This document shows positions 38,860 to 56,802 of a stretch of 64,000 nt of DNA, piece by piece. Origin of the DNA: Thermoplasmatales archaeon. Lineage in GTDB: Archaea > Thermoplasmatota > Thermoplasmata > Thermoplasmatales > Thermoplasmataceae. Within the stretch, counting starts at the first letter, position 1. Every line of letters begins with the position of its first letter. The stretch is from assembly GCA_026127925.1 (NCBI GenBank), contig JAJSLM010000006.1, forward strand, positions 22,302 through 86,301, given 5' to 3'. The notes under the pieces were generated by a model. It was not told the DNA's origin. It searched no databases and saw only the letters and a program-made list of their open reading frames with translations. The position numbers and the translations under genes were made by a program.

Positions 38860-39654
38860 TTATGCTGGTTCTTCCGAGAAAAATTTCTCTCTCAGGGTTT
38901 TACCGACCTGAAGAGAATTGTTAATGGCTGTTTTGACCTCATCCATCGTGAGATAACCTACCTCGCCTTTCTGCATGGCCCTGATATGCCCATCTTCCGT
39001 TGTTGTCACAGTAATCCTTGTAGAACCCATCTGCTCTTCCTCTGTATCGGGATCACATACCAGGACATCACCTATTTTTGACATGGTAACCGATATCGGA
39101 ATATGCTTCAGAACAAGCTTTGTATCTTTCCCACCCTCTTTCGAACCAGGAATAACAGCATTCCTCAGGGCGGATACAGCTGCAAGTGTGCACGCATCGA
39201 TGAGGTTCCCGTCAAAGTCCAGCACATCAATATCAACAAATACGATCCACACTTTTTCTCCGGGAGTTATGACGAGGCTATCCATGTCTATCATTTTACT
39301 CTCTCTGATTCCACGATCTACGACACGGGCAAGTTCAATTGTACCCTCACCTGGAGGTCCAGATTCAAACGTTGGGAACGCCATAGGAAGTAACTCTACA
39401 TTCGTAGTCAAAACACCACTGTCCGGGGTGTCGGGAAAAGGCTCTCCAGATTCTATTTTGACACCGGCGACAACTTTTGTCTTTCCGAGTTCAACTCTGG
39501 CAGAACCAGAAGCCCTTGGTACGTAACCAGGAAAGATCTTTATTTCCCTGAAATCAAGAGGTGATCTCCCATCTCCTCTCTTTCCCTCTTTCAATCTATT
39601 GATTATGTAACTTTTCTTGATCTCAGATAATACCCCTGCTTCATCTTTCGGCAT
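38860..39654 (-). CDS. rrp42: Exosome complex component Rrp42 (inactive RNase PH-like)
   Basis: RNase PH fold pattern, ~264 aa, directly downstream of rrp41. Confidence 0.8.
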   Translation of the reverse strand: MPKDEAGVLSEIKKSYIINRLKEGKRGDGRSPLDFREIKIFPGYVPRASGSARVELGKTKVVAGVKIESGEPFPDTPDSGVLTTNVELLPMAFPTFESGPPGEGTIELARVVDRGIRESKMIDMDSLVITPGEKVWIVFVDIDVLDFDGNLIDACTLAAVSALRNAVIPGSKEGGKDTKLVLKHIPISVTMSKIGDVLVCDPDTEEEQMGSTRITVTTTEDGHIRAMQKGEVGYLTMDEVKTAINNSLQVGKTLREKFFSEEPA

Positions 39655-40400
39655 TATTCACCACCTTCCTCAAGTGCTATATCTCTGTATTTCCCTGCAA
39701 GGGCTTCCCTCTGGATCTCGCTGATCCTTTTTATGGCATCGTCTATCATTTCGGTTGCCTTGTTGAATTCTTCAATCGTCAAGTCTCCATCCATCTGCAT
39801 CAGCACTATCTTCCCGGATTTCACCAGCTGCGCTATCGGGAGATCCGCTTCACCGAAGTTATCCTCCTCCTTGCCAAGATCCAGTACTATCTGTCCTGCC
39901 ACCTTCCCGGCTGTACATCCCGCGACCATATCCCTCATAGGAATGCCAGCGGCAGCCAGGGCTACGGCCGATGCTGTAAGGCCTGCTATCCTTGTCCCTG
40001 CATCTGCCTGGAGAACCTCGATAAAAACATCGATCTGGGTTCTCGGGAACTGCTCAGCAAGAATTGCAGTCTGCAGAGCTTCAGATACAACCTTTGAGAT
40101 CTCTATTGATCTCCTGTCAGGTCCAGGCCTCTTTCTTTCGTCGACTGAGAAAGCTGCCATGTTGTATCTCGCTTTAACTACTGCCATATCCATGTTCTGC
40201 GTGTGCTTAGGATATGCTTCCCTTGGTCCATACACGGAGGCAATAATCTTGTTGCCTCCCCATTCAATCATCGCTGATCCATCAGCATTTTCTAATACGT
40301 CCGTCTGTATCTTTATAGGTCTAAGTTCGCTGGGAGACCGGCCATCTAACCTGAGGCCGTTCTCGTCTATTAACTTTAGATCTGTTTTTGCTCCACCCAT
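39654..40400 (-). CDS. rrp41: Exosome complex exonuclease Rrp41 (RNase PH-like)
   Basis: LRLDGRSPSELRP N-terminus and RNase PH motifs, 248 aa. Confidence 0.85.
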   Translation of the reverse strand: MGGAKTDLKLIDENGLRLDGRSPSELRPIKIQTDVLENADGSAMIEWGGNKIIASVYGPREAYPKHTQNMDMAVVKARYNMAAFSVDERKRPGPDRRSIEISKVVSEALQTAILAEQFPRTQIDVFIEVLQADAGTRIAGLTASAVALAAAGIPMRDMVAGCTAGKVAGQIVLDLGKEEDNFGEADLPIAQLVKSGKIVLMQMDGDLTIEEFNKATEMIDDAIKRISEIQREALAGKYRDIALEEGGE

Positions 40401-41090
40401 CTAATTTCCTCCTTTCAATCCTTTCAAAAAATTCCCAACTCTATCTGTCAATCCATTTGTGTGCGCTTCCCTTTCAACCATCCTAATTGCAGAAACTGCA
40501 TTCATTATGTTCTCAGGACTTCCGTCTATCCAAATTAGGCCGTTTTGTCCAAGTACGATTCTTGTTGATGTCGCATCTTTTATCATGTTGACCATATTTC
40601 CACCCTTTCCTATGATCCTCGGGACCTTTGGGGAAGGAACGGATATAATGTGTCCACCTTCTAATTTCCTCAAGCCGACATCTCTCAGAGTGATCCAGCT
40701 CTCCTTAAGCTCGTTAACTGTCATAACTTTTGCATACACGTAGTCCCCCATGGAAAGGTATTTCTTCAGTTCGCCACTGTTTATGCGCCATGGGCTGTCA
40801 TTTGAATGCAGCATCGTAAGGTATGCTGAATTGATATCTATCGTCCACATGGAAGGTCCGATGTCTATGACTTTTCCAATAACCTTGTCGCCCCTTCTTG
40901 GCACATATCTTCCATAAAATGGAACTACGTCTACGAAACCATTTCCCGTTTGGACTACACCAAAATATGAGGAACAGAAATTATTCTCACTGCATTTATA
41001 GATCCCGTTTCTTGGTCTGTCCTGAGTTATCTCAATTACGTCTCCGGGAACCACTATTCTTTTTGTGTCCATTGTTTGTTCACCTGTCAA
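40401..41090 (-). CDS. rrp4: Exosome complex RNA-binding subunit Rrp4 (S1 + KH)
   Basis: S1 domain then KH motif IGKGGNMVNMIK. Confidence 0.85.
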   Translation of the reverse strand: MTGEQTMDTKRIVVPGDVIEITQDRPRNGIYKCSENNFCSSYFGVVQTGNGFVDVVPFYGRYVPRRGDKVIGKVIDIGPSMWTIDINSAYLTMLHSNDSPWRINSGELKKYLSMGDYVYAKVMTVNELKESWITLRDVGLRKLEGGHIISVPSPKVPRIIGKGGNMVNMIKDATSTRIVLGQNGLIWIDGSPENIMNAVSAIRMVEREAHTNGLTDRVGNFLKGLKGGN

Positions 41091-41344: not shown

Positions 41345-42091
41345 TTACGGAATCACGCGGCTGTCCTTGAAATCTTTGATAAATCCCTCAGAGGTATTTT
41401 TCGAATCCGACGTAGGATTTCTGTTTATAAGAATGGCATTCATTCCAGATTCCCTGGCAGCCCTGATCTCCTTCTCAGAGTCAGATATGAAGATCAAATT
41501 TTTCTTATTTTTTCCTATTTTTTTAGCAATTCTGCTATAACTCTCAGGGTCTGTTTTCTTCCCAACGGACATATCGAAAAATCCATCTATGTACATCGCC
41601 AGGTCTCCGTACACAGTTGTGCTGAAAAGAAGTCTTTGCGACAGGGCGCTTCCTGATGAATATATGTATATCCCTATGCTTCCACCCCTCCATTTTTTAA
41701 ATGCCTCAGGTACGTCATCGTATACCTCGCCTCTTATGGATCCATTTCTGTACCCTTCTTCCCAGATGAATCCCTCTATCTCTTTCAATGGAGCTGTCTT
41801 ACTGTCCTTTTCCACCAGGTATCTTATTGCAGACGATACACGATTGAGAAAATTTTCTGTAGCATACTTATCTGCTGGAACAAATTCTAAAGGTAGATCT
41901 GGGAGTATTCTAAGTCTTTCAATACAACCAGCAATCTCAGGCCTACGGTAATTACTGTGCAAAAACGTTGCGACGTTTTCCTTGACGTAATCAAAAAGTG
42001 TGGAGTGAACAAATTCAATTGGGGTAGTAGTTCCTTCAATGTCCAGTATCACAGAGTTAATGCCAATATCCACCAGACCCATTAAGATCAT
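41345..42091 (-). CDS. mtnC: Enolase-phosphatase E1 (HAD hydrolase of methionine salvage)
   Basis: VILDIEGTTTPIEFV signature; likely start ATG at 42091 forms an ATGA overlap with the mtnD stop. Confidence 0.7.
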   Translation of the reverse strand: MILMGLVDIGINSVILDIEGTTTPIEFVHSTLFDYVKENVATFLHSNYRRPEIAGCIERLRILPDLPLEFVPADKYATENFLNRVSSAIRYLVEKDSKTAPLKEIEGFIWEEGYRNGSIRGEVYDDVPEAFKKWRGGSIGIYIYSSGSALSQRLLFSTTVYGDLAMYIDGFFDMSVGKKTDPESYSRIAKKIGKNKKNLIFISDSEKEIRAARESGMNAILINRNPTSDSKNTSEGFIKDFKDSRVIP

Positions 42092-42705
42092 CTTCGCTTT
42101 GTTGTAGGTATATACGAAGGCCCAAAACATACGGGCTCATATGATTGCTCCTTTCCACTTCCCGTGTAATAAGGAGTCCAGCCAGCTGGGTCCTGAAACA
42201 GCCTTATAGCCTTGATCCTTTTTTCGTTGCATAGATCAAACCAGTGTCTCGTTCCCCTGGGTATGCGGATAAGATCGCCTGTCTCAACCTCTACTGAAAC
42301 AACTTCATCCGTTTCAGTATGGATATAGAATATACCTCTGCCCTCTATTGCGTACCTCACTTCGTCTTCGCTGTGCGTATGTTCCTTCCTGAACTTTTGA
42401 AGCATAGAATCAAGATCAGGGGTATCTGGTTTCATATCAATTACGTCTGCCGTTGTGTAGCCACCTATTCTCTTGAGTCTCCGCACATCTTCATCGTATG
42501 CTTCAAGAATCTTTTCTGGATCGGTTTCATCACTGCTTAATTTGCCAGTATCCCACCTTTCGTAATGTATCCCTATATTTTCCAGAAAAACTTTTGCCTC
42601 TCCACTGCTTTCAATCTTTATACCTTTGTCAGGAACGCTTATAACTACCATTGAATCATCACCTTTTTCTCTTAAATTACATTCCGGAATTAACAAGCCT
42701 TCCAT
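42088..42705 (-). CDS. mtnD: Acireductone dioxygenase (cupin)
   Basis: HTHSEDEVRYAIEGRGIFYIH...IRIPRGTRHWF cupin metal-site pattern of the ARD family. Confidence 0.7.
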   Translation of the reverse strand: MEGLLIPECNLREKGDDSMVVISVPDKGIKIESSGEAKVFLENIGIHYERWDTGKLSSDETDPEKILEAYDEDVRRLKRIGGYTTADVIDMKPDTPDLDSMLQKFRKEHTHSEDEVRYAIEGRGIFYIHTETDEVVSVEVETGDLIRIPRGTRHWFDLCNEKRIKAIRLFQDPAGWTPYYTGSGKEQSYEPVCFGPSYIPTTKRR

Positions 42706-42766
42706 GGACCTCCAACAGGAACTCTAAGACTTCAGTATGCCTCTTTGCAGCCTCAACATTATTCCC

Positions 42767-43342
42767 TCATACATACAGGCCATGGCCGGAAAGAAGGAAA
42801 CAATGTAGGTTTTTATCATTTTTGAGTAAATCGTTGACCTTAGCGGAAAGGGAGAGCATGTCCTGCGAATTTTCTAAAACCGGGATCCATTCGGAATGAT
42901 CGTGAGATACTACGTTTTCAAGTCCTTTGAGCATTTCATATCCCTCCATCTGAAATCCCCCATCCTTGAGGTATTTCTTTGAGAGAATTGTTCCCCAAAT
43001 AGAGTGAGTGTGGAACACGGCGCTACAGTTCCTCTGTTTGATCGCAGCAACATGAAGCAATGTTTCACTTGATGGTTTTCTCTCCCCGGAGAGGATTCTT
43101 CCAAGATCATCAACGTAAACTATGTCTCGCAAGTTCAACATGCTTTTGTCAAGGCCGCTTCCCGTAATGGAAAGAACAAATGGAGATCTCGAGATCAGTG
43201 CACTCAGATTCCCGCTTGTGCCAAAAAGCCATCCTCTTCTGTAGAATTCGTACGCAATTTTTATTAGATCGAGTGAGACGTTAAGATTTGCTTCCCGAAT
43301 CCCCTGGTTTCCTACATTTACTTCCTGCAATTTATTTGTCAC
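42767..43342 (-). CDS. mtnB: Methylthioribulose-1-phosphate dehydratase / class II aldolase-adducin family
   Basis: SGNLS, HTHS and GHG motifs of class II aldolase/MtnB. Confidence 0.65.
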   Translation of the reverse strand: MTNKLQEVNVGNQGIREANLNVSLDLIKIAYEFYRRGWLFGTSGNLSALISRSPFVLSITGSGLDKSMLNLRDIVYVDDLGRILSGERKPSSETLLHVAAIKQRNCSAVFHTHSIWGTILSKKYLKDGGFQMEGYEMLKGLENVVSHDHSEWIPVLENSQDMLSLSAKVNDLLKNDKNLHCFLLSGHGLYV

Positions 43343-43591: not shown

Positions 43592-44284
43592 CTATGGCTT
43601 AAATTCTTGATGCTGAAATAAGTAGATGTAAGAAATGACCATTATTATTGCTAGGAAAGAGGCAGTGGCAAGGCCAAGAGAAGGATCCACGTTAATAATC
43701 CCCTTCTTATAATATTCGAAGCTAGTTAACGGGGTTAAGAAATAAAGTATCATCCCCATGGGCAATCCCGAGGTTATGCCAAGGCTTACATAATTTTCAA
43801 TCAATTCTACTGCAGCAATAGGGATCAAAAGAATAAACACTATACTGATCATAAATGCATTCAACTGAGAAGGCGATAGAGAGGATAAAATGGAAATCGA
43901 CGCATATACCAAAAGAGAAATTAAAATTGGGATAACGAGAAACGTGTTTTTTGTGATCAATAATATGGATACCTCTGTTACTATGAATGGTAAAAGGCCC
44001 AGTGCAAATACTATAAGTTTTGAAATTGCTATTCGTTTCCAACTTCCAAGGAAGGAAAGTTCGAAAACGGTCATAAGTTTATTACGAGTAAAGTGTGATC
44101 CGACAATTAAAATAATAAATGGAATCAGCAACATCTGAGTCAGCAATGAAAATTCCACAAGGCTCTTCAGATATTCAATAGTGTATAATTGTGTAAGAAT
44201 GATCATAGACAATATAGGAACATATATTGGCAGAGGGAATACCCCTTTTAGATACCACTTAACGGTCATTGTCAAATTGGCCAT
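43592..44284 (-). CDS. ABC-2-type transporter permease
   Basis: Six hydrophobic helices; overlaps the ATPase gene by 26 nt. Confidence 0.5.
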   Translation of the reverse strand: MANLTMTVKWYLKGVFPLPIYVPILSMIILTQLYTIEYLKSLVEFSLLTQMLLIPFIILIVGSHFTRNKLMTVFELSFLGSWKRIAISKLIVFALGLLPFIVTEVSILLITKNTFLVIPILISLLVYASISILSSLSPSQLNAFMISIVFILLIPIAAVELIENYVSLGITSGLPMGMILYFLTPLTSFEYYKKGIINVDPSLGLATASFLAIIMVISYIYLFQHQEFKP

Positions 44285-45095
44285 ATATTCTGCGCACTCC
44301 GGATTTTCTGAAACCTATTATTACGCCACTCTCTAACAGCTTCGCAAGTTTTTTTATGTCCGATTTAACAAGACAAATATCACCATACCTGAACAAGCAT
44401 TCCATTTTAATCTGTGCGCTTCTGGTCATGTACACTTCAAAAATGTCTGATGAAAATAGGTCACTTATTGTTCCGTTCCAGACTGCTCGTCCATTGTTAA
44501 GAATCACTATGTAGTCGGCTAGAGTTTCGGCTTCTTCAGGGACATGAGTTGAAAAAATCAAATCTCTATTCATACGGTACATGTCGTTCATTACATTTCC
44601 TGTCCTAGAAATGTCAATGTGAGTGAACGCTTCATCAGCTATTATTCTTGAAGTATTCCGTGAGAAGGCACTTAATAGAGTCATGAGTTGCTCTTGACCT
44701 GACGAGAGCTTAAATAGCCTTTCGTCATAAAATTCTTCAAGATCTAATTGTTTAAGCATGGGCTCAAAATCAGGCCCCAAATCAGGGGAACGGCGAGCAA
44801 AGTTAATAAATTCTTTTACTTTCATCCTGTAGGATAGTTTAGGCTTTTCAAAGAGAAATGTTGAACTTTTAAGTGCTTCGGCTCTGTTTTTATACGGTTC
44901 GATTCCGTTGATCTCCAGAGAACCTGTTGAGGGAGTCAAGATACCTGCTATTATAGAAAGAACTGTTGTTTTGCCACTTCCATTTTGTCCTAAAAAACAT
45001 AATCGGTTTGTTTCTACCTCAAGATTTAAAGTATCCAAGGCTTTTTTTTGCTCGCCAAACTTCTTTGTCAAGTTTTTGGCCTTTAATAAGAACAT
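44259..45095 (-). CDS. ABC transporter ATP-binding protein
   Basis: Walker A GQNGSGKTT, signature LSSGQEQ, Walker B IIADEA. Confidence 0.85.
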   Translation of the reverse strand: MFLLKAKNLTKKFGEQKKALDTLNLEVETNRLCFLGQNGSGKTTVLSIIAGILTPSTGSLEINGIEPYKNRAEALKSSTFLFEKPKLSYRMKVKEFINFARRSPDLGPDFEPMLKQLDLEEFYDERLFKLSSGQEQLMTLLSAFSRNTSRIIADEAFTHIDISRTGNVMNDMYRMNRDLIFSTHVPEEAETLADYIVILNNGRAVWNGTISDLFSSDIFEVYMTRSAQIKMECLFRYGDICLVKSDIKKLAKLLESGVIIGFRKSGVRRIYGQFDNDR

Positions 45096-45100
45096 TGAAT

Positions 45101-45925
45101 TCAGTTCGCCTTCCTATAGACGTATACAGCCAGAATTGCAGAAGAAAGCAATAATATTATGTTCAAAGGGAACGCAAAGCCAAAACCATAATATATCCAC
45201 CCAAACCAGTCTTGGGCGGGAACACCGTTTCCTGTACCAAGGTTCATAATCGTTAGGCCAGCTACATGTATAGCGCTCATGTTGAAAGTGAAGCTTGGAA
45301 ATATATATGTGAGTAAGTTTATCGTGTTATTTGATGCTTGGGTTAGAAACGCGGACATTGCGAGTTGAGAACCGAAGTGTACGTAACTAACCTCTATGTT
45401 TGTAAAATTAGGTTCGTTAAAATAATAATCTGGAAATCCAAGGTAGCCACTTGGGTTCATGTTTTCAGCGGAATGTGATATAGTAAAATTTAATATGCGA
45501 TCACTGACCGTGTTTCCGTTCGGAAACAGCATATTAATAAGACTGTATTCGCTTCTTGTAAAGTTTCCAGAATAGTTGGAAATCTCTACAACAGATGAAC
45601 CATAAAATGGTGGAGCAGGAAGCAATTTAGCATTAAATCCCGTGCCTGTTGGTGAAGGATACACTTTATAGAGTTTCGAGTCAACGTGGTAATATTCAGT
45701 TTTCATTTTCGTTATATTTACTGTTACCCCTAAATCGTACATTGTATAGTTCTTTTTCACAACCGTACCAAAAATACCGTAGTACTCCAGTGAGATCCCC
45801 GAAGAAAAACTATCCTTGTATTCTTTATGTATGTATGTACCAAAAGTATATGTTGATGCAGGGATGAAATTAACAGCGACTCCTATGATCACAAGTGCGA
45901 GTATAACTACTGTCAACTTTTTCAT
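45101..45925 (-). CDS. Hypothetical secreted/membrane-anchored protein
   Basis: N-terminal signal/TM and C-terminal TM helix; N/T/Y-rich. Confidence 0.4.
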   Translation of the reverse strand: MKKLTVVILALVIIGVAVNFIPASTYTFGTYIHKEYKDSFSSGISLEYYGIFGTVVKKNYTMYDLGVTVNITKMKTEYYHVDSKLYKVYPSPTGTGFNAKLLPAPPFYGSSVVEISNYSGNFTRSEYSLINMLFPNGNTVSDRILNFTISHSAENMNPSGYLGFPDYYFNEPNFTNIEVSYVHFGSQLAMSAFLTQASNNTINLLTYIFPSFTFNMSAIHVAGLTIMNLGTGNGVPAQDWFGWIYYGFGFAFPLNIILLLSSAILAVYVYRKAN

Positions 45926-45966
45926 TCATATCCACCAAATGAGAAAAATAATATATATTATTATAT

Positions 45967-46500
45967 CTATGCGTCAAAAGTTACGTCAAAATCAATTGGT
46001 ATGCCACCAACACCTGATTGATAGTAGCCGGTGCCGTAAATGTACACGTAATTCACGTACTGTCCATTACCCACATATTCCATTTGATTTACCAAAGTAC
46101 CTGTCAAATGTTGGCCAACGGCACTGTTTAAACTGTAGTCGACACTACTAGAAAGATCCGTTGAGCTTTCATGACTAGATGTACCCGTGATAGATCCACC
46201 GTCAGGCCAAACTCCACCGCTATTTGTAACTAATTTTGTATTCGTGTTCAGCTGAAAATCTCCATTGTTATAGGTAGCAAAATACTGCCAGTTATTGTTA
46301 ACCCATGCCATGTGGATTCCGAATATGTCTGTGGCATAAACCTGGCTGTACGCATGGTTGCCATAAGAGTCTGCGTGGGTCACACCTGAAATCACCAATA
46401 TAAGCAAAAGCCCAAACAATACTGAAAGTGTTGTTACGAGCAAATGCCACTTCTTTTTACTCTTTTGTGTTTTCATTATGTTGCTCACCAAATGGTTCAT
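45967..46500 (-). CDS. Hypothetical secreted protein
   Basis: K-rich N-terminus then TM/signal, G/Y/N/T-rich body. Confidence 0.4.
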   Translation of the reverse strand: MNHLVSNIMKTQKSKKKWHLLVTTLSVLFGLLLILVISGVTHADSYGNHAYSQVYATDIFGIHMAWVNNNWQYFATYNNGDFQLNTNTKLVTNSGGVWPDGGSITGTSSHESSTDLSSSVDYSLNSAVGQHLTGTLVNQMEYVGNGQYVNYVYIYGTGYYQSGVGGIPIDFDVTFDA

Positions 46501-46985
46501 GTCATATATATATATAATTTTCGTTTAAACTACGCCAATTATAAACCGCTGTTTCAACTTTTGTTGCAGTTTGAGAAATAACCTAACATCAACTCGTTGC
46601 TGTATGGACTATCCAGAATGTAATCCTTATCGACGAGAATGACTATCATTTTCCTTTCCATGTCTTATCTCTCGAAGACGATATTTCAGTATCTATGATT
46701 GTTCACATTCTGGAAGCGTATGAGTGTTTCTCCGTTTTGTGAAATTACATTAACCGTCACAATATTGCTGCGCCCCCCTCCTTGTGGAATAGTATACTCA
46801 TATTGCTGTTTGTCCCATCCATAGTCACTTTATGGTTCTGTGAAAAGACACTGGTCCTCTCTTACAGAATCGACTGGTAACAAATTTCGCTGATAGGAAT
46901 ATACATTATGGATTTACATAAATTTCTCTTGATAAAAGATACTTCTATGAAAATTAACGTATTTATTAATCTAGGGTTGGAGTGG

Positions 46986-47684
46986 CTAACGCGGTTTTAC
47001 GATCCGTATTTCCACGTTCTCCCTGGACTTCCTTGAAAGCTGACTCATTATGTCTCCAACAATTCCAGCAGGTACCTCCAGAAGGCCCATCCATGAGCCA
47101 TCTTTACCCCATTCTTCCTTGATCAGATAACCCGTTCTCAGAATATCGCCATAAACCTTTCCATAGGCATCTCCCGTTAGTTTCACTGCAAGTTTCGTCT
47201 TATCCATTCTAATGGGCAGTATTGGCTTTATTGCCTTTAATATGGTCTGAAGTTGATCCCCTGCGCTCTTGAAAGGGTCGACATGAACTTTTGCCTCTTC
47301 CATAGCCTGTGCAATCCTTACCGCAGGGTGTGGTGTATTTGTCTGCGGGTTTATGGATTCACGTACGATTAGTTCTATAATCTGTTTCTTTCGGCGTTCA
47401 AGCAGTTCTCTTCTCTGGTCTGTAGTGAGTTCAATTTGTCCCTTTCTGACAATCTCGGTTGCAATTTCCTTGATGTCTGCGGTTTTAAAGACTTCTTTTA
47501 TCGCTTCTTCTCCTGCCTTTTCTCCTTTACGAGCGTCTTTGTAAACTTCGTCTATTGCGAGGTCCTGGTCCGCGTCTATCTTTCCTTCCTTGATGCGATC
47601 TGTAGCATCCGGATCGACGAATATCTCGAACTTATGACCGTGTGATTCCAGTCTAGCAATTATCGCATCTTCCAACCTGACCAT
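46986..47684 (-). CDS. sdo1: SBDS-family ribosome maturation protein (Sdo1)
   Basis: MVRLEDAIIARLESHGHKFEIFVDPD N-terminal FYSH domain; conserved superoperon position; the ORF-track start (47756) is likely an upstream artefact. Confidence 0.8.
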   Translation of the reverse strand: MVRLEDAIIARLESHGHKFEIFVDPDATDRIKEGKIDADQDLAIDEVYKDARKGEKAGEEAIKEVFKTADIKEIATEIVRKGQIELTTDQRRELLERRKKQIIELIVRESINPQTNTPHPAVRIAQAMEEAKVHVDPFKSAGDQLQTILKAIKPILPIRMDKTKLAVKLTGDAYGKVYGDILRTGYLIKEEWGKDGSWMGLLEVPAGIVGDIMSQLSRKSRENVEIRIVKPR

Positions 47685-48038
47685 ACGATCCGTTATTTTT
47701 CTATAAGAGAAAAAATTTGCGTATATATTAATTCTGAAAAAAATAGGTGGAATCAAGTTTAGGAAAATTAAAAAGCGAAGATGAATGAGAACAAAGCGTC
47801 ATGTTCCAGACTCAGGAATTAGAGTTTGATTTGCAAAGTTTATGGAATGTGTAATTTATTCATCTATTCTTAATGATTCGTTTACAAAAAGTAATAGCGT
47901 GGCCATCACTGAAGAATCAAGCGGCATTTCGATGAGTTAAAAAATTTAAAAATATAGGGCATATACTTGTTGCAATAGATCTATAAGTCTTATATTGTCA
48001 TTCACTATTAACAATATTGTAAAACTGGACGGATAATA

Positions 48039-48611
48039 ATGAAAGAACTTACACTTTACAGAATCCGGGAAATGGCGCTAGAATCGAAAAGGGCAGTTTA
48101 TACAACACCTCAGTTGTCTAATCTGATTGGCAAAGAATACACTACCGCGTCCGTTTATATGACAAGGCTCTGGAAAAGTGGTCTTGCTAAACATTTGGTA
48201 AGAGGAAAAATTTCTTTCATAGATAACGACTTTGTGAATGCATCTCAGCTAATTGAACCATCTTACATATCCTTATCCTCTGCCTTATTGTTTTACAATG
48301 CATCGCAGCAGGTTCCACGTAGGGTTCAGTCCGTAACTCCTGTCAATTCTATGACGTTCGAAGACCTTGGTTTAGAATATCATAAGATTCCTCCAGGACT
48401 TATGTTCGGTTACGAACGTCACTTAGTAGGGGGAAGTTACTGCTTTGTCGCAACTGTGGAAAAAGCTCTCCTTGATGGGTATTATCTCAACTATTTCTCA
48501 GCAGGGGATCTTGATTCGTATGTAGGGAGTAAAAGAATGAAAGAATTCAGACCTTATTTGGACAAATTTAAGGGCAAAGGAAAATTAAAGCTGCTCGAGG
48601 TGGTCAGATGA
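48039..48611 (+). CDS. AbiEi-family antitoxin / transcriptional regulator (type IV TA)
   Basis: SYISLSSALLFY motif typical of AbiEi; 4-nt overlap with the AbiEii gene. Confidence 0.55.
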   Translation: MKELTLYRIREMALESKRAVYTTPQLSNLIGKEYTTASVYMTRLWKSGLAKHLVRGKISFIDNDFVNASQLIEPSYISLSSALLFYNASQQVPRRVQSVTPVNSMTFEDLGLEYHKIPPGLMFGYERHLVGGSYCFVATVEKALLDGYYLNYFSAGDLDSYVGSKRMKEFRPYLDKFKGKGKLKLLEVVR

Positions 48612-49360
48612 TTGATTCAAAGAAGATAATGGAAATTTCCCAACTATCACACTTGAGGCCATGGCAGCAGGAAAAGCATTATCTGCAGAGTTTAATCCTC
48701 ACAACCATTTCGGACTATCCTCTCGTGTTTAAAGGGGGAACATATCTATGGTTTTTTCACGGGCTTAACAGATTTTCTGAGGATTTAGATTTCACCGCAA
48801 AAGGCCTATTCAAAAGAGAATTGCCTGAATTTGTTTCAAGATCCTTGAGACTATACGGTTATGAAAACAAGTTAAAGATCATAAATGAGAATAATTTCAA
48901 TGTATCAGCAAGATTCATGATCGATGGTCCCCTGCACACGAATGAAAAGGATAGATGCATAGTGTACGTTGAGATCAGCATGAGGGAAAAGGTCATTCTT
49001 CCAGGTATACCATTGAGTATAAATCTTCCCCAATATGATATTCCTGTTCGAACAATCACCGGAATGAACCTTGATGAAGTAGGAGCAGAAAAAGTCAGGG
49101 CAATTCTTACACGAAACAAGGACAGAGACGTATACGATTTATTTTATCTCATTCGTCTAAAGAACATTCTGTTCGATCAGGAATTAATCAACAGAAAGCT
49201 CGACTATTACAATAAAAAATTTGACCCTGCTGAATTTCTCAATAGATTAGGCCAAGCTCAAAAAACGTATAAAAAGGAATTAAGGCAAACAGTTCTGGGC
49301 GAGCTACCTGATTTTGATGTAGTCCGAGCCTATATAGAGAACTGGGTGAAAGGGGGATAA
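48608..49360 (+). CDS. AbiEii/AbiGii-family nucleotidyltransferase toxin (DUF1814)
   Basis: FKGGTYLWFFHGLNRFSEDLDFTA matches the GGTAL...RFSEDIDF signature. Confidence 0.75.
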   Translation: MIDSKKIMEISQLSHLRPWQQEKHYLQSLILTTISDYPLVFKGGTYLWFFHGLNRFSEDLDFTAKGLFKRELPEFVSRSLRLYGYENKLKIINENNFNVSARFMIDGPLHTNEKDRCIVYVEISMREKVILPGIPLSINLPQYDIPVRTITGMNLDEVGAEKVRAILTRNKDRDVYDLFYLIRLKNILFDQELINRKLDYYNKKFDPAEFLNRLGQAQKTYKKELRQTVLGELPDFDVVRAYIENWVKGG

Positions 49361-49530
49361 GGAAATATTTTTGAGAATTGCATTTGATTAAAGCAGAAAC
49401 AACTTTACTTGAATTTCTTACATAAACGTAATTTGTTACCACACTTCTTCCGTATGAACTGCTGCATAGGAATGTTGATGTAAGCAATATATCTAAAAAA
49501 AATTGGTATTGTCGAGAAGCTCTCGAATCT

Positions 49531-50241
49531 TTATGCTTCCTTGAAGACCTTATCAACTTCTTCCTTTGAATAGATGTGGAATTTCTTCCCTTTAACTATC
49601 GTCGCGACCTCGGGACTCCTTATCTCTGATCCTTCTTCACTTACAGATTTAAGTGCCCTTATGCCCAGCAAAACAGCTTCGCTTTCTGACATCCCTTCCT
49701 TGTATTCTTTCTCAAGGAATGCTGTAACCTGATCCTTAAGCGCGCCTATGATCACTGCCCTGTACTCATTGATAGTTCCCGCGGGATCGCAGTCAAAAAG
49801 TTTTGGTGCAATACTGTCTATACCGGCGAAAATCATGGATACACCATACGGTCTTACGCCTCCGTACTGTGTGTATTGCTGCATCTGATCGGCAACTCTC
49901 TTGACAAGGTTCTCAAGGTTCACGAGAGACCCATATGTGATCTTCTCCTGCTGTGCCGCAACCCTTGCAAAATCAACAAGAACTCTCGCATCAGCAACAA
50001 GGCCAGATGTAACGGTTGCAACATTATCATCTATGAGCTGGATCTTTTCCATCGAATTCTGCTCAACCAGTTTACTCTTGAATTTCTTATCAGATATCAG
50101 TGCCACGCCATCTCCAAATTTTATTCCTAAGGCAGTCGAACCTTTCTTAACAGCTTCCCTTGCATACTCTACCTGAAATAACCTGCCATCAGGGGAAAAT
50201 ACAGTTATAGCTCTATCATACGCCATTTGGGCTTGTTGCAT
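49531..50241 (-). CDS. psmA: Proteasome subunit alpha
   Basis: [21 protein letters not shown]-terminal alpha-subunit signature. Confidence 0.9.
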
Positions 50242-50347
50242 TTAATTCACCTTTCTATTCAGTAGGATAATCGAATAATAAATGTTTTCTACAAATTTTC
50301 CTGACGTTATAAAACCTTTTTGTAGTTACCTTTTCATGAATCCAGGT

Positions 50348-50363
50348 GCAAATTTTGTTGTGA
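50348..50363 (-). terminator. Candidate hairpin terminator just downstream of the rad50 stop
   Basis: GCGGAA-(T-rich loop)-TTCCGC inverted repeat 20 nt after the rad50 stop, on the coding strand. Confidence 0.3.
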
Positions 50364-50382
50364 GATGCGGAAAAAATTCCGC

Positions 50383-53106
50383 TCATATTACCGATGATAC
50401 CATTGAGTTTCCATTCTGCTTCACAACCTCGAATACGTTATCTGCAGCCGTGTAAAGATCGGTGTGATGTGTAACTATGATCATCTGTGGAACAGGAGTA
50501 TCCTCGCTGCTAAACGTGTACTGTATTATATCCTTCAAGTTGCTCCTTCGATCCTGATCCAGGTAAGTGGTTGGTTCATCCATGATCATTGTTTTTATGT
50601 TTTCCATAACGTATTTTGCAAGTGCTAGTCTCAGGGCAATCGAGAGTGCTGTTTTTTCTCCGCCACTCAGCATATCTACGCTTTCTGTCTGGCCATTCTG
50701 GGATATCTCTATGTTCATGTCCTCGCTGACTTTAACGTCATCAAAATTAAGATTGAAAGAATCTGCGTAATCCATTACTTTTAAGGTTAGAAATTCCGCA
50801 GAATCCTTCCTTATTGCTTTCTGTATGCCGTCACGATCAAAGCACTGCCTGAGTTTTTCCATCTCTGTAATTGCATCGGCCAATCTCTCAAGTTTTTCCT
50901 GTTTAATTTTCAGATCAGATATTTTCACATCAAGTTCTTCGATCTGTTTTTCATAAACCTCTTTTCTTGTCTCTAATTTTGAAATATTTCCTAAGGCATC
51001 CTCATGGTTTTTTTGTGAATCTACTAACATCTTGTCCGTGTTCTTGAACTCGGTTTGGATACTGGGGTAAGATGCGACCGACTTATAAAGTTCCTCGATC
51101 TCCTTGTTCAGATCTGATAATGACGCACTATCTGCTTCTACCCGAGCTCTCACGGATGTAACGTCTGTCTTTATGCCCTGGATCTTTTTATCAAGTCCCT
51201 CCATTTTTTGAATTGTTTCTAACGTAAAACGACCCGGGATAAAACCCAGCTCCAGCTCTATTGTCATGAGATCCTTTTCAATCTCCTCAATGTTTGATAC
51301 TAAGGCACCAGTTTCTTCCTGGATTTTTCCTATATCCATATGAGATAGGCTAATCTTCAGGGATTCATATTTCTGGTAGCTCATTTCCAAATTTTTGAGC
51401 TCTTCTTTCTTCAGATCCTTCTGTTTCTGCTTTTCTGTATAACTCAAATATTCGAATTCAAGTTTCTTGGTATCGTCATTTAATTTCTCGTATTTTTCTC
51501 TGTGAGACTTCAGGTTCTCTGTATCTCTGTAAAAATCGTTAATCTTCCTGCTGTTGAGGAAATCGTTAATTTTGTTAAGTTCTTTCAGTTCATTATTAAT
51601 TTTTTTTACCAGATTATTGTTATCCCCGATCTCGCCATCTATTTTAGAGATTTCATTATTATAGCCTTCCAGGATCACAGCCCTATGTTCGTCGGTTATT
51701 GGTTGCTGGCATAGGGGGCATGTAGTGATGCCTGATATTGTCCCGATTTTCTCTTTAATTATTTTTACCTGATCTTCAAGGCCTCTTATTTCGGAATCTA
51801 GGACCGATTTTTGTTTCTGGTTCTCCTGGAAAAGCTCTCTCTTCTGATTTACTATATCCTCAAGCTTTTCACGGCTATCTATCTCTACACCCAGTACTGC
51901 CTGAATCTCAACTTTCTCGCTAGAAATCCGTTTTTCTATCTTATCTATCTCTTCTTTCTCACTCGATGCGAGTTCCAGTTTCCTCCTGTAATTTTCATAC
52001 GCATCTTTCAGTTCGTCCAATTCCGCTTCAATGGAATCCATCTCTTTTTTGAGAATCAGGTATCTTTCATGCGGTTTTTCGAGTTGTTGAAGTTCGGACT
52101 TCATTTCATTGTATGAGTTAATCTGCTCTTCATTTTTCTTCAGGCGTTCCCTTTTGTCGCTGATCTTATCCTTCTTGCTTAAGTATTCATTTACTCTATC
52201 TTTCTTCTGCAGAAGGGCGCGATCGATGTTCTTCTCGAGGCTATCAGCTCTGGAAGAGAATTCCTCTGTTTTCTGTAAATCTTCCTTGATTCTTTTCTCG
52301 AGCTCTAATCTTTTGTTCTTTTTCTGCTCCAGGGTGTCTGAATCCGCTTTAATTTTATTCAGCTTGCCGAGAAGTCCGTCCCTTTTCTCTTTTGTAATAT
52401 CGAGCTGCGCCTTAATATCTGACGCCTTTTGTGTCGCGGTGGCCAGTTCGGCTAAAGTGTCCTGTACGGACTGATCGATATCGTTCCTTTGATCCTTGGT
52501 TAATTTCAACTCATCCGGTATTCCAAGGAGCAAACTCCTTTTCAAGTCAAGGTCCTTCTTTAGCGTTTTAAGTTCGTCTGCATATTCTGTGAGTACGTCA
52601 AGACCAACAATTTTTCCGAATATCTTTTCGCGCTCAGATTTCGCACTTGACACCAGAGCGTCTATTTCTCCCTGTTCAACAAATACTGAATTAAGGAATA
52701 CTTCTTTATTTATTCCCACGTAATTAGGATCTTCTATGGCTTTGTCTACACCGGAAACATGCCGTGCGATCTCTATTCCGTCCCGAACAAGAACGGCGTC
52801 CCTATCCTTAACATTGCCGTTTTTTCCTATGCTCATCTGCCTTGTTATGAGATAATTGTGATTTCCTATAGTAAAATCCAGAGAGACAGAACAGTCTGTT
52901 TTTCCCCTCTTTACAAGATCCTCTATTTTAGATCCCCGACGTTCGCCAAGGAAAGCGAATTTCATTCCGTCTATTATGCTGCTCTTCCCGGCTCCATTCT
53001 TTCCTATGATTATGTTTACGCCTTTCTCCAGAGATATTTCGGTGTCGTTGTGGGACAGGAAATTATGCAGCTTCAGCCTATTGATTATCATCGTCCTCCA
53101 CTCCAA
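50383..53106 (-). CDS. rad50: DNA double-strand break repair ATPase Rad50
   Basis: Walker A GKNGAGKSS, long coiled coil with CPLCQQPI zinc hook, C-terminal signature/D-loop. Confidence 0.9.
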   Translation of the reverse strand: MEWRTMIINRLKLHNFLSHNDTEISLEKGVNIIIGKNGAGKSSIIDGMKFAFLGERRGSKIEDLVKRGKTDCSVSLDFTIGNHNYLITRQMSIGKNGNVKDRDAVLVRDGIEIARHVSGVDKAIEDPNYVGINKEVFLNSVFVEQGEIDALVSSAKSEREKIFGKIVGLDVLTEYADELKTLKKDLDLKRSLLLGIPDELKLTKDQRNDIDQSVQDTLAELATATQKASDIKAQLDITKEKRDGLLGKLNKIKADSDTLEQKKNKRLELEKRIKEDLQKTEEFSSRADSLEKNIDRALLQKKDRVNEYLSKKDKISDKRERLKKNEEQINSYNEMKSELQQLEKPHERYLILKKEMDSIEAELDELKDAYENYRRKLELASSEKEEIDKIEKRISSEKVEIQAVLGVEIDSREKLEDIVNQKRELFQENQKQKSVLDSEIRGLEDQVKIIKEKIGTISGITTCPLCQQPITDEHRAVILEGYNNEISKIDGEIGDNNNLVKKINNELKELNKINDFLNSRKINDFYRDTENLKSHREKYEKLNDDTKKLEFEYLSYTEKQKQKDLKKEELKNLEMSYQKYESLKISLSHMDIGKIQEETGALVSNIEEIEKDLMTIELELGFIPGRFTLETIQKMEGLDKKIQGIKTDVTSVRARVEADSASLSDLNKEIEELYKSVASYPSIQTEFKNTDKMLVDSQKNHEDALGNISKLETRKEVYEKQIEELDVKISDLKIKQEKLERLADAITEMEKLRQCFDRDGIQKAIRKDSAEFLTLKVMDYADSFNLNFDDVKVSEDMNIEISQNGQTESVDMLSGGEKTALSIALRLALAKYVMENIKTMIMDEPTTYLDQDRRSNLKDIIQYTFSSEDTPVPQMIIVTHHTDLYTAADNVFEVVKQNGNSMVSSVI

Positions 53107-54295
53107 GGGTTCTCTTGAGCCATTTTATTCCATCTTCCTTGGTATTTGCATCCCTTCCGCCCATGTTTGCATAGAAATCCACTGCAAGTTTCGCAGTTTC
53201 AGGACTGTCTGAAAAATAGGAGTTGATGTAATCGCTTATCTTTTCCATGCCAGGTTTTATCTCAACTGTACGCTCTATGCTGTGAAATTCTGGATTCCTG
53301 AAAATTATGTTATCGTAGGTTGCGAGTTTCTCCTTGACTGATTCCCTGCTTCCCTCTCCTGTTATCCTCACCGAGACTACAGGTTTCTTTGTTTCAAAGT
53401 TCATCGAATATTTGTTGATCATGGTATCAATGTCACTGGCATAATTGGAGAAATCAGAATCTATCCTGTACTGGAATCTCACGCTCTTCAGGATCCTTCT
53501 CTCAACCTTTACGTTTCCATCGTCCATCGTCACTATATTTATGGATTTCCCGTTCTTGAGGAAGCCAGAGATCTCGTTTGTGGATTTCATCTCTGTCGAT
53601 CCAGCATATGAAAAAACGGGGTAGGTGCTGTCCCTTAATGCCCAGTCGTGAACGTGGCCAAAGGCGAGGTAGCTGAAGTGCTGCGGCAGTTCCTCGTACC
53701 TGGCCTCACAGGCCTCATCATAAAGAAAGCCCTCTATAGCCTGGTGTGACATCAGAATTGAGTTCTTATAACCTAAAGCCAGTTTGTCGGCCTGCTGATA
53801 AGCCTCGAGTAGTTCAGGTTTTCTCATACCCTTGAGGTTAGATATGCCGGCAATCAGGACTTGTTCATCGTTGATCTCTACAACGTGGTGCTCCAGGCTA
53901 TCCATTCCCAGAAGCTTGATTCCAGCGAAGTCAAATATGCGCGCAGCTGGATAATCCTTTCTCTTCGGGCGGTCGTGGTCACCGAGGATCAGGAAAAAAG
54001 GGATCTTGCGTTCCATGATCGGAAGTATACTGTCTTTGAACTCAGTAAGCGCCCTGTTGCTAGGGCTCCAGGTATCAAAAAGATCCCCCGTATGAATGAT
54101 GAAATCAACATTTTCACGAAGAGCTATATCCATTGCTTCACGGAAAGCATCGTAGAAGTCCTGTTCCCTCTCATCGATCATGTACTGCCTGCTTCCAAGG
54201 TGCGTATCAGAAACATGCATGAACTTGAGCATCCTAATCACCAAGTATTCTTGAGACGCGCTTGAGGTCTTCCTGTGCAGATTTCTTCTTTTCAC
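53078..54295 (-). CDS. mre11: DNA double-strand break repair nuclease Mre11
   Basis: Calcineurin-like phosphoesterase motifs MHVSDTHLG, GDLFD, GDHD; the true start is probably near 54232. Confidence 0.9.
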   Translation of the reverse strand: MKRRNLHRKTSSASQEYLVIRMLKFMHVSDTHLGSRQYMIDEREQDFYDAFREAMDIALRENVDFIIHTGDLFDTWSPSNRALTEFKDSILPIMERKIPFFLILGDHDRPKRKDYPAARIFDFAGIKLLGMDSLEHHVVEINDEQVLIAGISNLKGMRKPELLEAYQQADKLALGYKNSILMSHQAIEGFLYDEACEARYEELPQHFSYLAFGHVHDWALRDSTYPVFSYAGSTEMKSTNEISGFLKNGKSINIVTMDDGNVKVERRILKSVRFQYRIDSDFSNYASDIDTMINKYSMNFETKKPVVSVRITGEGSRESVKEKLATYDNIIFRNPEFHSIERTVEIKPGMEKISDYINSYFSDSPETAKLAVDFYANMGGRDANTKEDGIKWLKRTLGVEDDDNQ

Positions 54296-55787
54296 GCTCT
54301 TCCAGGGCTTCTTTAAGGAGTGGAACGAGGTTCACATCGCCTCCACCTTCCATGCTCTCCCTCTGCCTTATCCTCACGTTCACAGGCATCTTAACAAACT
54401 GTCCAACTAATATCGCTTCACCTATATTCAGTGATGGCAGATCCTGCAGAATCGATTCGCTTATGCTCTCACCGCTCTCTATTATTGCATTTTGATCCAG
54501 AGGGTTTGTTACTCTTAGTATTATTTCGGAATTGCACTGGCTGAGGATATCCTGATCAATCTTTCCGGGTCTCTGCGTTATTATCACAAGAAACAGACCG
54601 AATTTCCTGCCCTCCGATGCGATTTTTCTAATGATCTGTGCTATCTCCGTCTGAGACTTTGGAGGTATGAAATTATGTGCCTCCTCTATGAAGACGAATA
54701 TAGGGTATTTGTACTGGCCTGACATTTTCGCTTCCATCATGGCTGTAAGTACCCTGAGGGAGAAGTAGTTCGCCAGGAACTGGTCGAGGCCAGAGAGATC
54801 GAGAACGGACATAAGTCCGGGTGAAAGATAATCGGTCATGTCGGTCGTTCTTTCTGAAAATATGGATTTTACCTTGGACAGAAATCTCAGTCTTCCAGCC
54901 AGCTTCTTATAATCCTCTGGATCAAGGTTTTCCACCGTGTTCATGAACTCCTGGAAATCCTTCCTACCATGCATTTTTGAAAGTGCGTTCTCAACTGCTT
55001 TTCTCAGTGAGACCCATGATTCCTTTATGCCCATGATCTGGGACAGATCATCTGCGTCAAGATCCGAGAATTTCAGGGTGAACTGATCCACAACACCGTT
55101 CTGGATCGTGTCGTACCTCCCGGTGCTAAGAGGAGTTCTGAATACCTTTATATCGTTCTGGTAGTGTTTCCCAGAGCGGTCCCTCCTCATTAGGACATAA
55201 TCTGCATGTGGATCTAGAACGACTATAGATGCACCCTTCTTGAGAAGTTCCTCCATGATCACGCCTGCTGTGTGGCTCTTTCCTGCCCCGGTCTGTGCAA
55301 TTATTGCGACGTGCCTTCTCATACCGTTTATATTCACCGATACTCTGACATCCGGCCTGTCAGCAAGATAGCCGATATCCAGGGCTTCTTCATCCGATGT
55401 TCGGAATACCCTCTCAAGCAGATCGGAGGGAGCACGGTAGACAGGCGTTCCGGGCTTTACGAGTTCCCTAGAGAGTTCTATATTGTCTCCATCCACTAGT
55501 CCTAAAGTTTTCGCAATACACACGCTTGTTGAGTACTCAAGGTGTGTGGAAACATACTTCGAAACACTTTCGTAGTCAAGTCCTTCATTCAGCAGGTCGC
55601 TCTTCGACTGTATCCCCTCGATCCTTCCCAGGATCTTGCGGTCCTTAAGGTCGATGTATACGTATTCCCATTTTCTCACGTTCAAGTCCTCTGGAATCAC
55701 GAACCTGAAGGAGTCCGAAGTGTTAATGCCAACGACGTAGCCCAGCTTATATTCTGATTCTTGCACGTCTCTCCCCCCTGGTTTCAT
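54234..55787 (-). CDS. herA: HerA-type FtsK/HerA-family DNA helicase
   Basis: Walker A QTGAGKSHT, HAS-barrel N-terminus. Confidence 0.85.
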   Translation of the reverse strand: MKPGGRDVQESEYKLGYVVGINTSDSFRFVIPEDLNVRKWEYVYIDLKDRKILGRIEGIQSKSDLLNEGLDYESVSKYVSTHLEYSTSVCIAKTLGLVDGDNIELSRELVKPGTPVYRAPSDLLERVFRTSDEEALDIGYLADRPDVRVSVNINGMRRHVAIIAQTGAGKSHTAGVIMEELLKKGASIVVLDPHADYVLMRRDRSGKHYQNDIKVFRTPLSTGRYDTIQNGVVDQFTLKFSDLDADDLSQIMGIKESWVSLRKAVENALSKMHGRKDFQEFMNTVENLDPEDYKKLAGRLRFLSKVKSIFSERTTDMTDYLSPGLMSVLDLSGLDQFLANYFSLRVLTAMMEAKMSGQYKYPIFVFIEEAHNFIPPKSQTEIAQIIRKIASEGRKFGLFLVIITQRPGKIDQDILSQCNSEIILRVTNPLDQNAIIESGESISESILQDLPSLNIGEAILVGQFVKMPVNVRIRQRESMEGGGDVNLVPLLKEALEEREKKKSAQEDLKRVSRILGD

Positions 55788-56802
55788 AGAGGCTTATGCC
55801 TATCTCCTTTTCAAATGCACGCATAAAAACATTCTCCGTTTCTTCGCTCCTGAATTTTACTAGATCATCGACCCTTGAGAGCCAGATATTGTGTACCTTA
55901 AGCCCGCCATATCCCCAGAATAGCAGGCTGCGTATATCCTCCCTTAGATCTTCATTTCCGTCGTTTTTTGATGCAACGATCTCCACCTTAAATGGTAAAT
56001 CCCTTGTATCCGGCAGTATGTGTGTCGTAATTATAGGGATCTCCATCTGTCGATCGCCAGTGGCAAGCTTCATAGTGTGGGATACTGGAAATGAATATCC
56101 GGGATAAGTGGCCATGGACTTTATTATGAAATGGTCAGTGCTGCGGCTCTTCCTCTCAAGATCGATTTTTTTACCTTCCGCCTGCACCTGGGACAGAAGG
56201 AAATTCCTGAATATGGAACTGTCAGAACTCTTTGCTATAAATATCAGGGGTATATTTTTTCTAACAGCAAGATCGACCATCGTTAAGAGCGACGTGAAAT
56301 ATTCATTCCTAAACTCCTTAAAATCATCAGCATCTATGGCAATCTCTTCCGAAAATATTCTTCCGCTTAATGAACCATCCACCAAAATATAATCCGGACT
56401 CTCGTTTTCAAGCATTTTCAGTATGCTCAGGTGTTCGGAGTGCTCCATGCTCATTATGGTGTATCTCTGCACATCCTCACGGGCGACAACCTGCAACTTT
56501 GTCAGAAAACTTTCGTAGTTTTTGTTCTGGATGCTTGTAAGGGAGCGGAAAAGCATCAGTTTTTTTCCATTGTATAACTCTCTTATGATTTCAGAGCTAT
56601 CCGTTGCTGAGATCATGCCATGTGGTTCGGAATAATTTGGCATAGGGAAGAAATACTTGTCGAAGATCTCGGAATACAGTGATCTTCTCCAGGAATCTTT
56701 TGGTATCATCAGGTCGCCTTTGATCTGCTCCCTGTTCTTTCGTAAAAATTCAACATAATCGTAGAATCCTGTACTCATTTCTGCAATGATTATGAACACC
56801 AC
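55747..56802 (-). CDS. nurA: NurA 5'-3' nuclease
   Basis: Position immediately upstream of and overlapping herA; size and general NurA-like pattern. Confidence 0.6.
   Translation of the reverse strand: MVFIIIAEMSTGFYDYVEFLRKNREQIKGDLMIPKDSWRRSLYSEIFDKYFFPMPNYSEPHGMISATDSSEIIRELYNGKKLMLFRSLTSIQNKNYESFLTKLQVVAREDVQRYTIMSMEHSEHLSILKMLENESPDYILVDGSLSGRIFSEEIAIDADDFKEFRNEYFTSLLTMVDLAVRKNIPLIFIAKSSDSSIFRNFLLSQVQAEGKKIDLERKSRSTDHFIIKSMATYPGYSFPVSHTMKLATGDRQMEIPIITTHILPDTRDLPFKVEIVASKNDGNEDLREDIRSLLFWGYGGLKVHNIWLSRVDDLVKFRSEETENVFMRAFEKEIGISLYETRGERRARIRI

Follow-up and report, generated by a model that had tools for sequence, protein, structure and literature searches.

A 64,000-nucleotide stretch of an acidophilic Thermoplasmatales archaeon (contig JAJSLM010000006.1 of assembly GCA_026127925.1, positions 22,302 to 86,301; hereafter the window) carries an AbiEi/AbiEii toxin-antitoxin (TA) pair between psmA, encoding the proteasome alpha subunit, and SBDS. 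The best explanation, which we hold with considerable confidence, is that of an intact, presumably autoregulated AbiE operon residing in a 1.7-kb lineage-specific block that was most likely gained after the split from the closest sequenced relative. The pair is an ordinary archaeal AbiE module, whose identity and lineage-specific presence are supported; the significance attached to it in an earlier note on the same DNA was overstated.

Both abiE genes are encoded on the plus strand, opposite to the flanking psmA and SBDS. The stop codon of abiEi and the start codon of abiEii share four nucleotides (...cagATGAttg), and a Shine-Dalgarno-like GAGGTGG run lies just 5' of the abiEii ATG, still inside abiEi; through this ATGA overlap and the internal GAGGTGG, translation of the two genes would probably be coupled. 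The earlier note had singled out this overlap together with two motifs, LVFKGGTYLWFFHGLNRFSEDLDF (KGGT...RFSEDLDF) in the 250-aa protein and EPSYISLSSALLFYN (SYISLSSAL) in the 190-aa protein, all of which are present in the sequence and in the translations of the open reading frames (ORFs). It had also placed the pair on the opposite strand between psmA and SBDS, and Pfam confirmed both flanks. An independent public contig, derived from SRR15116022, shows an identical gene arrangement, and AbiEi is 100% identical to the NCBI protein LVQ96_06610, which derives from a metagenome-assembled genome named 'Thermoplasmatales archaeon' and is annotated as hypothetical.

The identity of the toxin is evident from profile searches. 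AbiEii matched Pfam PF08843 with 88.8 bits (cut-off 22.5) over profile positions 10-234 of 238, and the PADLOC model AbiEii PDLC02323 with 221.6 bits over positions 1-247 of 248. In an alignment of the window protein with 39 homologues, the residues of motif I (G43-G44), motif II (R55...D59-L-D61), motif III (K162...R169), and motif IV (R173-D174-x-x-D177) were all invariant or at least 90% conserved. The same motifs I-IV (hG[G/S]...R-x3-DhD; K-x6-R; +DxxD) are indispensable in Streptococcus agalactiae AbiEii, where their mutation abolishes toxicity (PMC3985639). Furthermore, Ser57 of RFSEDLDF, located two residues before the first catalytic Asp, is invariant in the family alignment and occupies the position at which S. 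agalactiae AbiEii has its phospho-acceptor T65 and MenT3 has S78 (preprint 10.64898/2026.01.19.700257). By sequence, the closest solved structures are the DUF1814 proteins 4o8s/4ok0 (E 7e-08), which contain the identical RFSEDLDF active-site stretch, followed by a weak match to 6y56 (E 0.062). Although deposited as 'Putative', 4o8s/4ok0 presumably represent JHP933 of Helicobacter pylori, a DUF1814 nucleotidyltransferase (NTase); JHP933 is encoded in a plasticity zone.

Recognition of the antitoxin was less direct. PADLOC identified the upstream protein as AbiEi (best E 1.8e-22, 78.1 bits; 15 AbiEi models matched), while Pfam and PDB sequence searches returned nothing significant for the window AbiEi itself, a profile built from 59 AbiEi orthologues found no match among PDB sequences, and the NCBIfam search yielded no match for either AbiEi or AbiEii. 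Because the Pfam, NCBIfam, and PDB sequence searches failed, the assignment rested on PADLOC together with fold comparison. An AlphaFold2 model of AbiEi, computed with 56 homologues, reached a predicted local distance difference test (pLDDT) score of 93.4 and a predicted template-modelling (pTM) score of 0.87. When this model was compared with the PDB by Foldseek at E<=0.001, only chains A and D of S. agalactiae AbiEi (6Y8Q) were retrieved over the full length (E 2.2e-06, template-modelling score 0.56, 16% identity over the structural alignment), and the first ~60 residues also matched winged helices of the IclR/MarR type. In addition, the orthologues as a group matched Pfam AbiEi_1 (34 of 59), AbiEi_4 (27 of 59), and several winged helix-turn-helix (wHTH) families. 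The AbiE identity proposed in the earlier note thus stands for both proteins, by Pfam and PADLOC profiles and by the 6Y8Q-like fold of AbiEi.

The promoter region of the operon contains a conserved palindrome. Its consensus, aTAACAATATTGTTAt, was found 15-40 nt upstream of the abiEi start in all 59 unique loci, with arm positions 4-8 complementary in 57-59 of them, and it is kept even where protein identity is as low as 35-50% (L037-L122 loci). The window copy, TAACAATATTGTAA, is located at 48009-48022, that is, 17-30 nt upstream of the abiEi ATG, agrees with the family consensus TAACAATATTGTTA at 13 of 14 positions, and is the sole near-consensus site in the 64-kb window; with respect to a wider AbiEi regulon, further near-consensus palindromes in the window were no more frequent than chance would predict. 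The palindrome is preceded by a TATA-like TTATATT (about 47990-47996), ~16 nt away. As the usual archaeal spacing between TATA box and start is ~26 nt, transcription is predicted to start inside the palindrome. Since AbiEi of S. agalactiae binds inverted repeats, TAACAATATTGTAA is, by analogy, likely the operator of the window AbiEi. A weaker outer ATCA...TGAT symmetry extends into the Shine-Dalgarno region, and an RNA hairpin masking the latter (outer ATCAC...GTGAT) was considered as an alternative; since the TATA-like box would put the start inside the inner palindrome, we judged this hairpin less likely than a DNA operator.

Related copies occur in variable genomic contexts. A database search with AbiEii at E<=1e-5 returned 2719 relatives, of which the best non-identical one shows 74% identity, and the named relatives come from Thermoplasmatota, Micrarchaeota, Marsarchaeota, and Diapherotrites. 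Ferroplasma acidiphilum, also of the Thermoplasmatales, encodes the homologue FAD_0835. Among 86 loci fetched via the toxin (six contigs and 80 metagenome loci), a ~190-aa AbiEi homologue lies directly upstream of the ~250-aa AbiEii in every one of the 70 loci with both genes complete, and the reading frames overlap by 4-25 nt in 66 of these 70; psmA or SBDS is nearby in none of the 86. Nucleotide homology to the closest abiE loci (L037-L042) is confined to 47977-49389, comprising the promoter, both genes, and a 22-29-bp tail; the module behaves as a small accessory cassette. The closest sampled copy, L037, shows 69% and 78% amino acid identity. It sits in a small TA cluster (L037 4096-4740, 3509-4099, and 2048-2543) with a second, divergent AbiEii of 214 aa and its 196-aa partner, HicA/HicB, and an IstB-like gene further on.

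The lineage-specific presence of the pair became apparent when 35 loci around SBDS relatives were fetched and the window genes mapped onto them, 34 of these loci being informative. The nearest relative, Thermoplasmata archaeon YS3.bin24 (L002; SBDS 99% and psmA 96% identical at the amino acid level, ~88-90% nucleotide identity), has the same NurA-HerA-Mre11-Rad50-psmA-SBDS order without AbiE. Followed from psmA towards SBDS, nucleotide homology between the two ends exactly with the psmA stop codon (49531) and starts again at 47806, so that the 122 bp in front of the SBDS ATG are shared. Between these breakpoints the window holds 1724 bp (47807-49530) and L002 302 bp, which share no similarity beyond shuffle-level scores. 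The whole L002 psmA-SBDS spacer measures 422 bp and is gene-free; hence the relatives do not all carry the pair at this position. In line with the earlier note, psmA and SBDS are normally neighbours: they are adjacent in 24 of the 34 informative archaeal loci, including Archaeoglobus and Asgard, with spacers of 42-125 bp, and the next-closest Thermoplasmata (~80% SBDS identity) have spacers of 42-43 bp. Judged from these comparisons, a gain of the pair on the window branch after the split from L002 is most likely, being the simplest reading. The unexplained 302 bp of L002 (9579-9880) contain only an 80-aa ORF of doubtful reality and match nothing in the sequences compared.

How the module would operate can be outlined from its bacterial counterparts. 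The AbiE systems of S. agalactiae and Lactococcus lactis combine a COG5340 antitoxin with a DUF1814/COG2253 NTase toxin and were first classified as type IV, more recently being proposed as type VII. The tRNA-modifying AbiEii of S. agalactiae is an NTase with pyrimidine specificity and is switched off by AbiEi-induced auto-phosphorylation at T65 (10.64898/2026.01.19.700257), and AbiEi represses its own promoter through inverted repeats (PMC3985639). By this precedent, free AbiEii of the window, as an NTase of the DNA-polymerase-beta type, would add nucleotides to tRNA 3' ends and so halt translation and growth; the C-terminal domain of AbiEi would neutralise it by inducing auto-phosphorylation of Ser57, the Ser/Thr two residues before the catalytic DxD; and the N-terminal winged helix would repress the operon by binding TAACAATATTGTAA between the TATA-like box and the start codon. 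Such a module may serve virus defence, self-stabilisation, or both. That it is functional is supported by purifying selection, with ratios of nonsynonymous to synonymous substitution rates (dN/dS) of 0.10 for abiEi and 0.16 for abiEii relative to the L037 copy, and by its intact motifs.

The window pair shares with the S. agalactiae and L. lactis systems an antitoxin-first bicistronic operon with overlapping genes, NTase motifs I-IV with Ser/Thr two residues before DxD, an antitoxin composed of a wHTH and a C-terminal antitoxin domain in the fold of 6Y8Q, and an inverted repeat in the promoter. It differs from bacterial AbiE in its archaeal host, its TATA-type promoter, and its low sequence identity to the bacterial proteins (16% to 6Y8Q). 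Furthermore, it has one compact palindrome of ~14-16 bp, whereas S. agalactiae has two 23-bp inverted repeats (PMC3985639). A more distant likeness exists to MenAT of Mycobacterium tuberculosis, in which DUF1814 NTase toxins likewise alter the 3' ends of tRNAs and are neutralised through phosphorylation induced by the antitoxin. The acceptor stems of tRNAs are either lengthened or blocked by MenT toxins, and MenA3 is a COG5340/AbiEi-like antitoxin. The weak match of AbiEii to 6y56, which we take to be MenT4, is consistent with this relationship, although, given the distance, the tRNA targets and nucleotide preference of MenT are not transferable to the window AbiEii.

Several points weigh against an autoregulated AbiE operon gained by insertion. 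First, the toxicity, target, and antiviral activity of archaeal AbiE are extrapolated from bacteria, and even there abortive infection is not guaranteed within the family, as AbiE of S. agalactiae failed to protect against 32 coliphages. Second, the right half-site of the window palindrome is degenerate (TGTAA, not TGTTA). Third, the block bears no signature of a mobile element: its 1.7 kb contain no integrase, other recombinase, or transposase gene, a search for direct and inverted repeats around 47600-49650 gave only short A/T-rich chance matches with neither terminal inverted repeats nor a target-site duplication, no tRNA attachment site was found at the borders (the only tRNA gene in the window is at 58256). 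Neither junction segment of the block has a match in any fetched locus or elsewhere in the window. Fourth, the window and L002 are fairly diverged (synonymous divergence, dS, 0.58-0.76), and L002 has unexplained sequence of its own. Finally, the block is only mildly GC-poor. A local GC deviation, a possibility raised in the earlier note, is present but weak (37.0% against 41.2%, 10th percentile; gene z-scores -0.46 and -1.13), and we consider GC and codon deviation too weak to argue for or against transfer; a weak deviation is indeed to be expected, since the contig of the closest sampled copy has a similar GC content (39%). Separately, a 16-nt A-rich direct repeat (D6, 47733/49492, 14 of 16 positions matching) was examined as a potential insertion scar. 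One of its copies lies within the SBDS-upstream stretch common to L002, and because the repeat does not bracket the block, it is most likely due to chance.

With respect to its role, the pair might be a selfish, addiction-type TA cassette without any antiviral function, kept because its loss is costly. We regard this as possible but rather doubtful. It would agree with the failure of S. agalactiae AbiE to protect against phages, with the position of the pair alone between housekeeping genes and not in a defence island, and with a scan of viral contigs that detected no AbiE relative; moreover, AbiE systems stabilise plasmids (PMC3985639). However, AbiE of L. lactis and related DUF1814 systems confer phage resistance, AbiE figures among the validated defence systems that Thermoplasmatota have kept (PMC12988326), and the closest copy adjoins other TA modules, namely HicAB and a second AbiE. 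AbiEi/AbiEii pairs have also been noted in Thermoplasmatales genomes (PMC10354927). From the family alone, an antiviral, abortive-infection role is plausible, and the two roles are not mutually exclusive.

An alternative to the gain itself is that the window organism and L002 both descend from an ancestor that already had the pair at this junction, L002 having lost it by deletion, so that retention rather than insertion would explain the difference. The L002 spacer, with its 302 unexplained bp, is not of the compact 42-62-bp kind and could be a deletion scar, and the dS between both organisms leaves time for gain as well as loss. Nevertheless, no trace of abiEi or abiEii was detected in this spacer by tblastn searched to E<=10, all hits having E>=0.1, and the outgroups L003, L004, and L028 have compact spacers and lack the pair, which would demand a gain followed by a loss instead of one gain. 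We therefore consider ancestral presence improbable and favour the gain on the window branch. Under gain or loss alike, psmA-SBDS is the ancestral arrangement, to which the pair was added as an accessory.

The earlier note had further emphasised that the pair lies inside the conserved exosome superoperon and in an unusual place. Both points call for correction: the superoperon is not intact here, and for this order the site is not unusual. The archaeal exosome superoperon, comprising psmA-SBDS-rrp4-rrp41-rrp42 and further genes, was reportedly described by Koonin et al. in 2001. In the window, its five genes retain the canonical order on the same strand within 11.4 kb, but they are not contiguous: 1.85 kb with abiE separate psmA from SBDS, and ~5.9 kb with seven other genes separate SBDS from rrp4. 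The superoperon is also referred to in PMC2695463. At the psmA-SBDS junction, different inserts (0.8-5 kb) are present in eight further Thermoplasmata loci, and rrp4-rrp42 were not found downstream of SBDS in these eight. The SBDS-rrp4 junction is variable as well, with ~6 kb of extra sequence in L006 and L034. Within this region, the interval from SBDS to the MtnB-like gene differs between the closest relatives, as the window (43592-46500) has an ABC transporter cluster with a GC content of 35-41%, and L002 (10700-13438) a gene of QueA type (Queuosine_synth) together with one for a short-chain dehydrogenase, encoded on the other strand. Taken together, at least five unrelated cargos occur at psmA|SBDS: AbiE, Rieske/cytochrome b, vWA plus kinase, DtxR-like, and a small membrane ORF. 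It is tempting to speculate, and we do so tentatively, that this boundary is a preferred landing site for foreign cassettes in Thermoplasmatales and that the palindrome TAACAATATTGTTA is the first operator defined for an archaeal AbiEi. Possibly, insertion is tolerated here because the psmA-SBDS spacer joins a terminator to a promoter.

This leads to the question of whether the insertion rewires the expression of its neighbours, either by breaking psmA-SBDS co-transcription, an effect the earlier note had thought possible, or by coupling the two genes to the TA pair through antisense or divergent promoter activity. The geometry would allow it, as abiE converges on psmA, with 170 bp from stop to stop, and diverges from SBDS, with 354 bp from start to start, and the psmA-SBDS gap is only 42-62 bp in most relatives. 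However, the 122-bp SBDS upstream region common to L002 is kept and holds a TATA-like TTAATATATA; even in the compact spacers of relatives, a T-rich, TATA-like element precedes the SBDS ATG by ~30 nt, suggesting a separate promoter for SBDS. On the minus strand 3' of psmA, a hairpin of 6 bp (49512-49526) followed by a U8 tract (49495-49502), 5-36 nt past the stop codon, forms a putative terminator, although the fold energies of the putative terminators were not distinguishable from those of shuffled sequences. Furthermore, no palindrome of the AbiEi type occurs near the psmA or SBDS promoters, and, as described above, many Thermoplasmata tolerate other genes at this junction. Rewiring is hence very improbable. 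Since psmA and SBDS each keep putative signals of their own, the insertion probably has little effect on the expression of either gene. For abiE itself, a T5 run at 49368-49372, 3' of abiEii, is a candidate terminator.

Table. Features of the abiE locus and its surroundings in the window, and cargo found at the psmA-SBDS junction in other Thermoplasmata loci.
Feature	Position	Strand	Basis or remark
Left junction segment of the lineage-specific block	47807-47976 (170 bp)	.	L002 homology ends at 47806; abiE-locus homology begins at 47977
abiE promoter/operator region	47977-48038	+	Nucleotide-level conservation with L037-L042
abiEi, predicted antitoxin and transcriptional autorepressor; N-terminal winged HTH, C-terminal AbiEi domain	48039-48611	+	ORF listing (ATG start, 190 aa); PADLOC, fold model
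abiEii, predicted DUF1814 nucleotidyltransferase toxin	48608-49360	+	ORF listing (ATG start, 250 aa); Pfam PF08843, PADLOC, motifs
Short 3' tail of the module	49361-49389	+	L037-L042 nucleotide homology reaches 49382-49389
Right junction segment	49390-49530 (141 bp)	.	Without homologue; L002 homology ends at the psmA stop codon, 49531
psmA, proteasome alpha subunit	49531-50241	-	Convergent with abiEii; Pfam Proteasome (186.4 bits) and Proteasome_A_N
SBDS with conserved upstream region	46986-47806	-	CDS 46986-47684, 122-bp upstream region 47685-47806; ORF listed as 46986-47756, real ATG at 47684; SBDS_N, SBDS_domain_II, SBDS_C
NurA, HerA, Mre11, Rad50	50383-56802	-	Operon directly upstream of psmA, same strand; arrangement also in L002
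Two proteins without Pfam match	45967-46500 (177 aa); 45101-45925 (274 aa)	-	3' of SBDS
ABC ATPase and 230-aa protein, presumed its permease	within 43592-46500	-	Interval includes both proteins without Pfam match
Class II aldolase (MtnB-like), ARD, HAD hydrolase	41345-43342	-	
rrp4, rrp41, rrp42	38860-41090	-	
Rieske/cytochrome b cluster, ~5 kb	L009 4884-10000; L010 2980-8012; L013 4967-10000		psmA-SBDS junction
vWA and protein-kinase cluster, ~3.5 kb	L017 2302-5772; L020 6531-10000; L025 2905-6725		psmA-SBDS junction
DtxR-like repressor and 335-aa ORF	L015 8060-10000		psmA-SBDS junction
169-aa membrane ORF	L019 9242-10000		psmA-SBDS junction

The remaining features of the region are listed in the table, and an Rfam scan of 46400-50400 gave chance-level matches only. 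Beyond the locus, an IS607-like pair (36203-38036, plus strand) adjoins a gene for a phosphoribosyltransferase as well as the 3' end of rrp42. Its first member is a serine recombinase (MerR-type HTH and Resolvase domains; 36203-36811), which is the lowest-GC gene of the window (32%); the second is a TnpB/OrfB_IS605 protein (37068-38036) that includes a TNB domain of the Cas12f1-like kind. L009 encodes a TnpB with 77% identity at 17948-18913. Furthermore, a low-GC (34-35%) pair at 61029-63418 on the minus strand, in which an N6_N4 DNA methylase gene (61029-61931) overlaps that of a PLD-domain protein (61928-63418), looks like a restriction-modification-type module and would be a second defence-type locus of the window.

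Our results leave the current understanding of AbiE and of the superoperon unchanged. For annotation, the protein deposited as 'hypothetical protein' can now be named AbiEi. The locus also provides a clean, datable case in which a TA cassette, on its own and with no mobility genes in sight, came to lie between two essential archaeal genes that are usually neighbours. Two modest by-products follow from it: the palindrome, as a well-supported and concrete candidate operator of this archaeal AbiE subfamily, members of which are common among DPANN archaea and acidophilic Thermoplasmata, and the evidence that psmA|SBDS repeatedly accepts foreign genes in Thermoplasmatales. As specific junctions of the exosome superoperon have eroded in this order, contiguity should be used there with caution as an argument for function.

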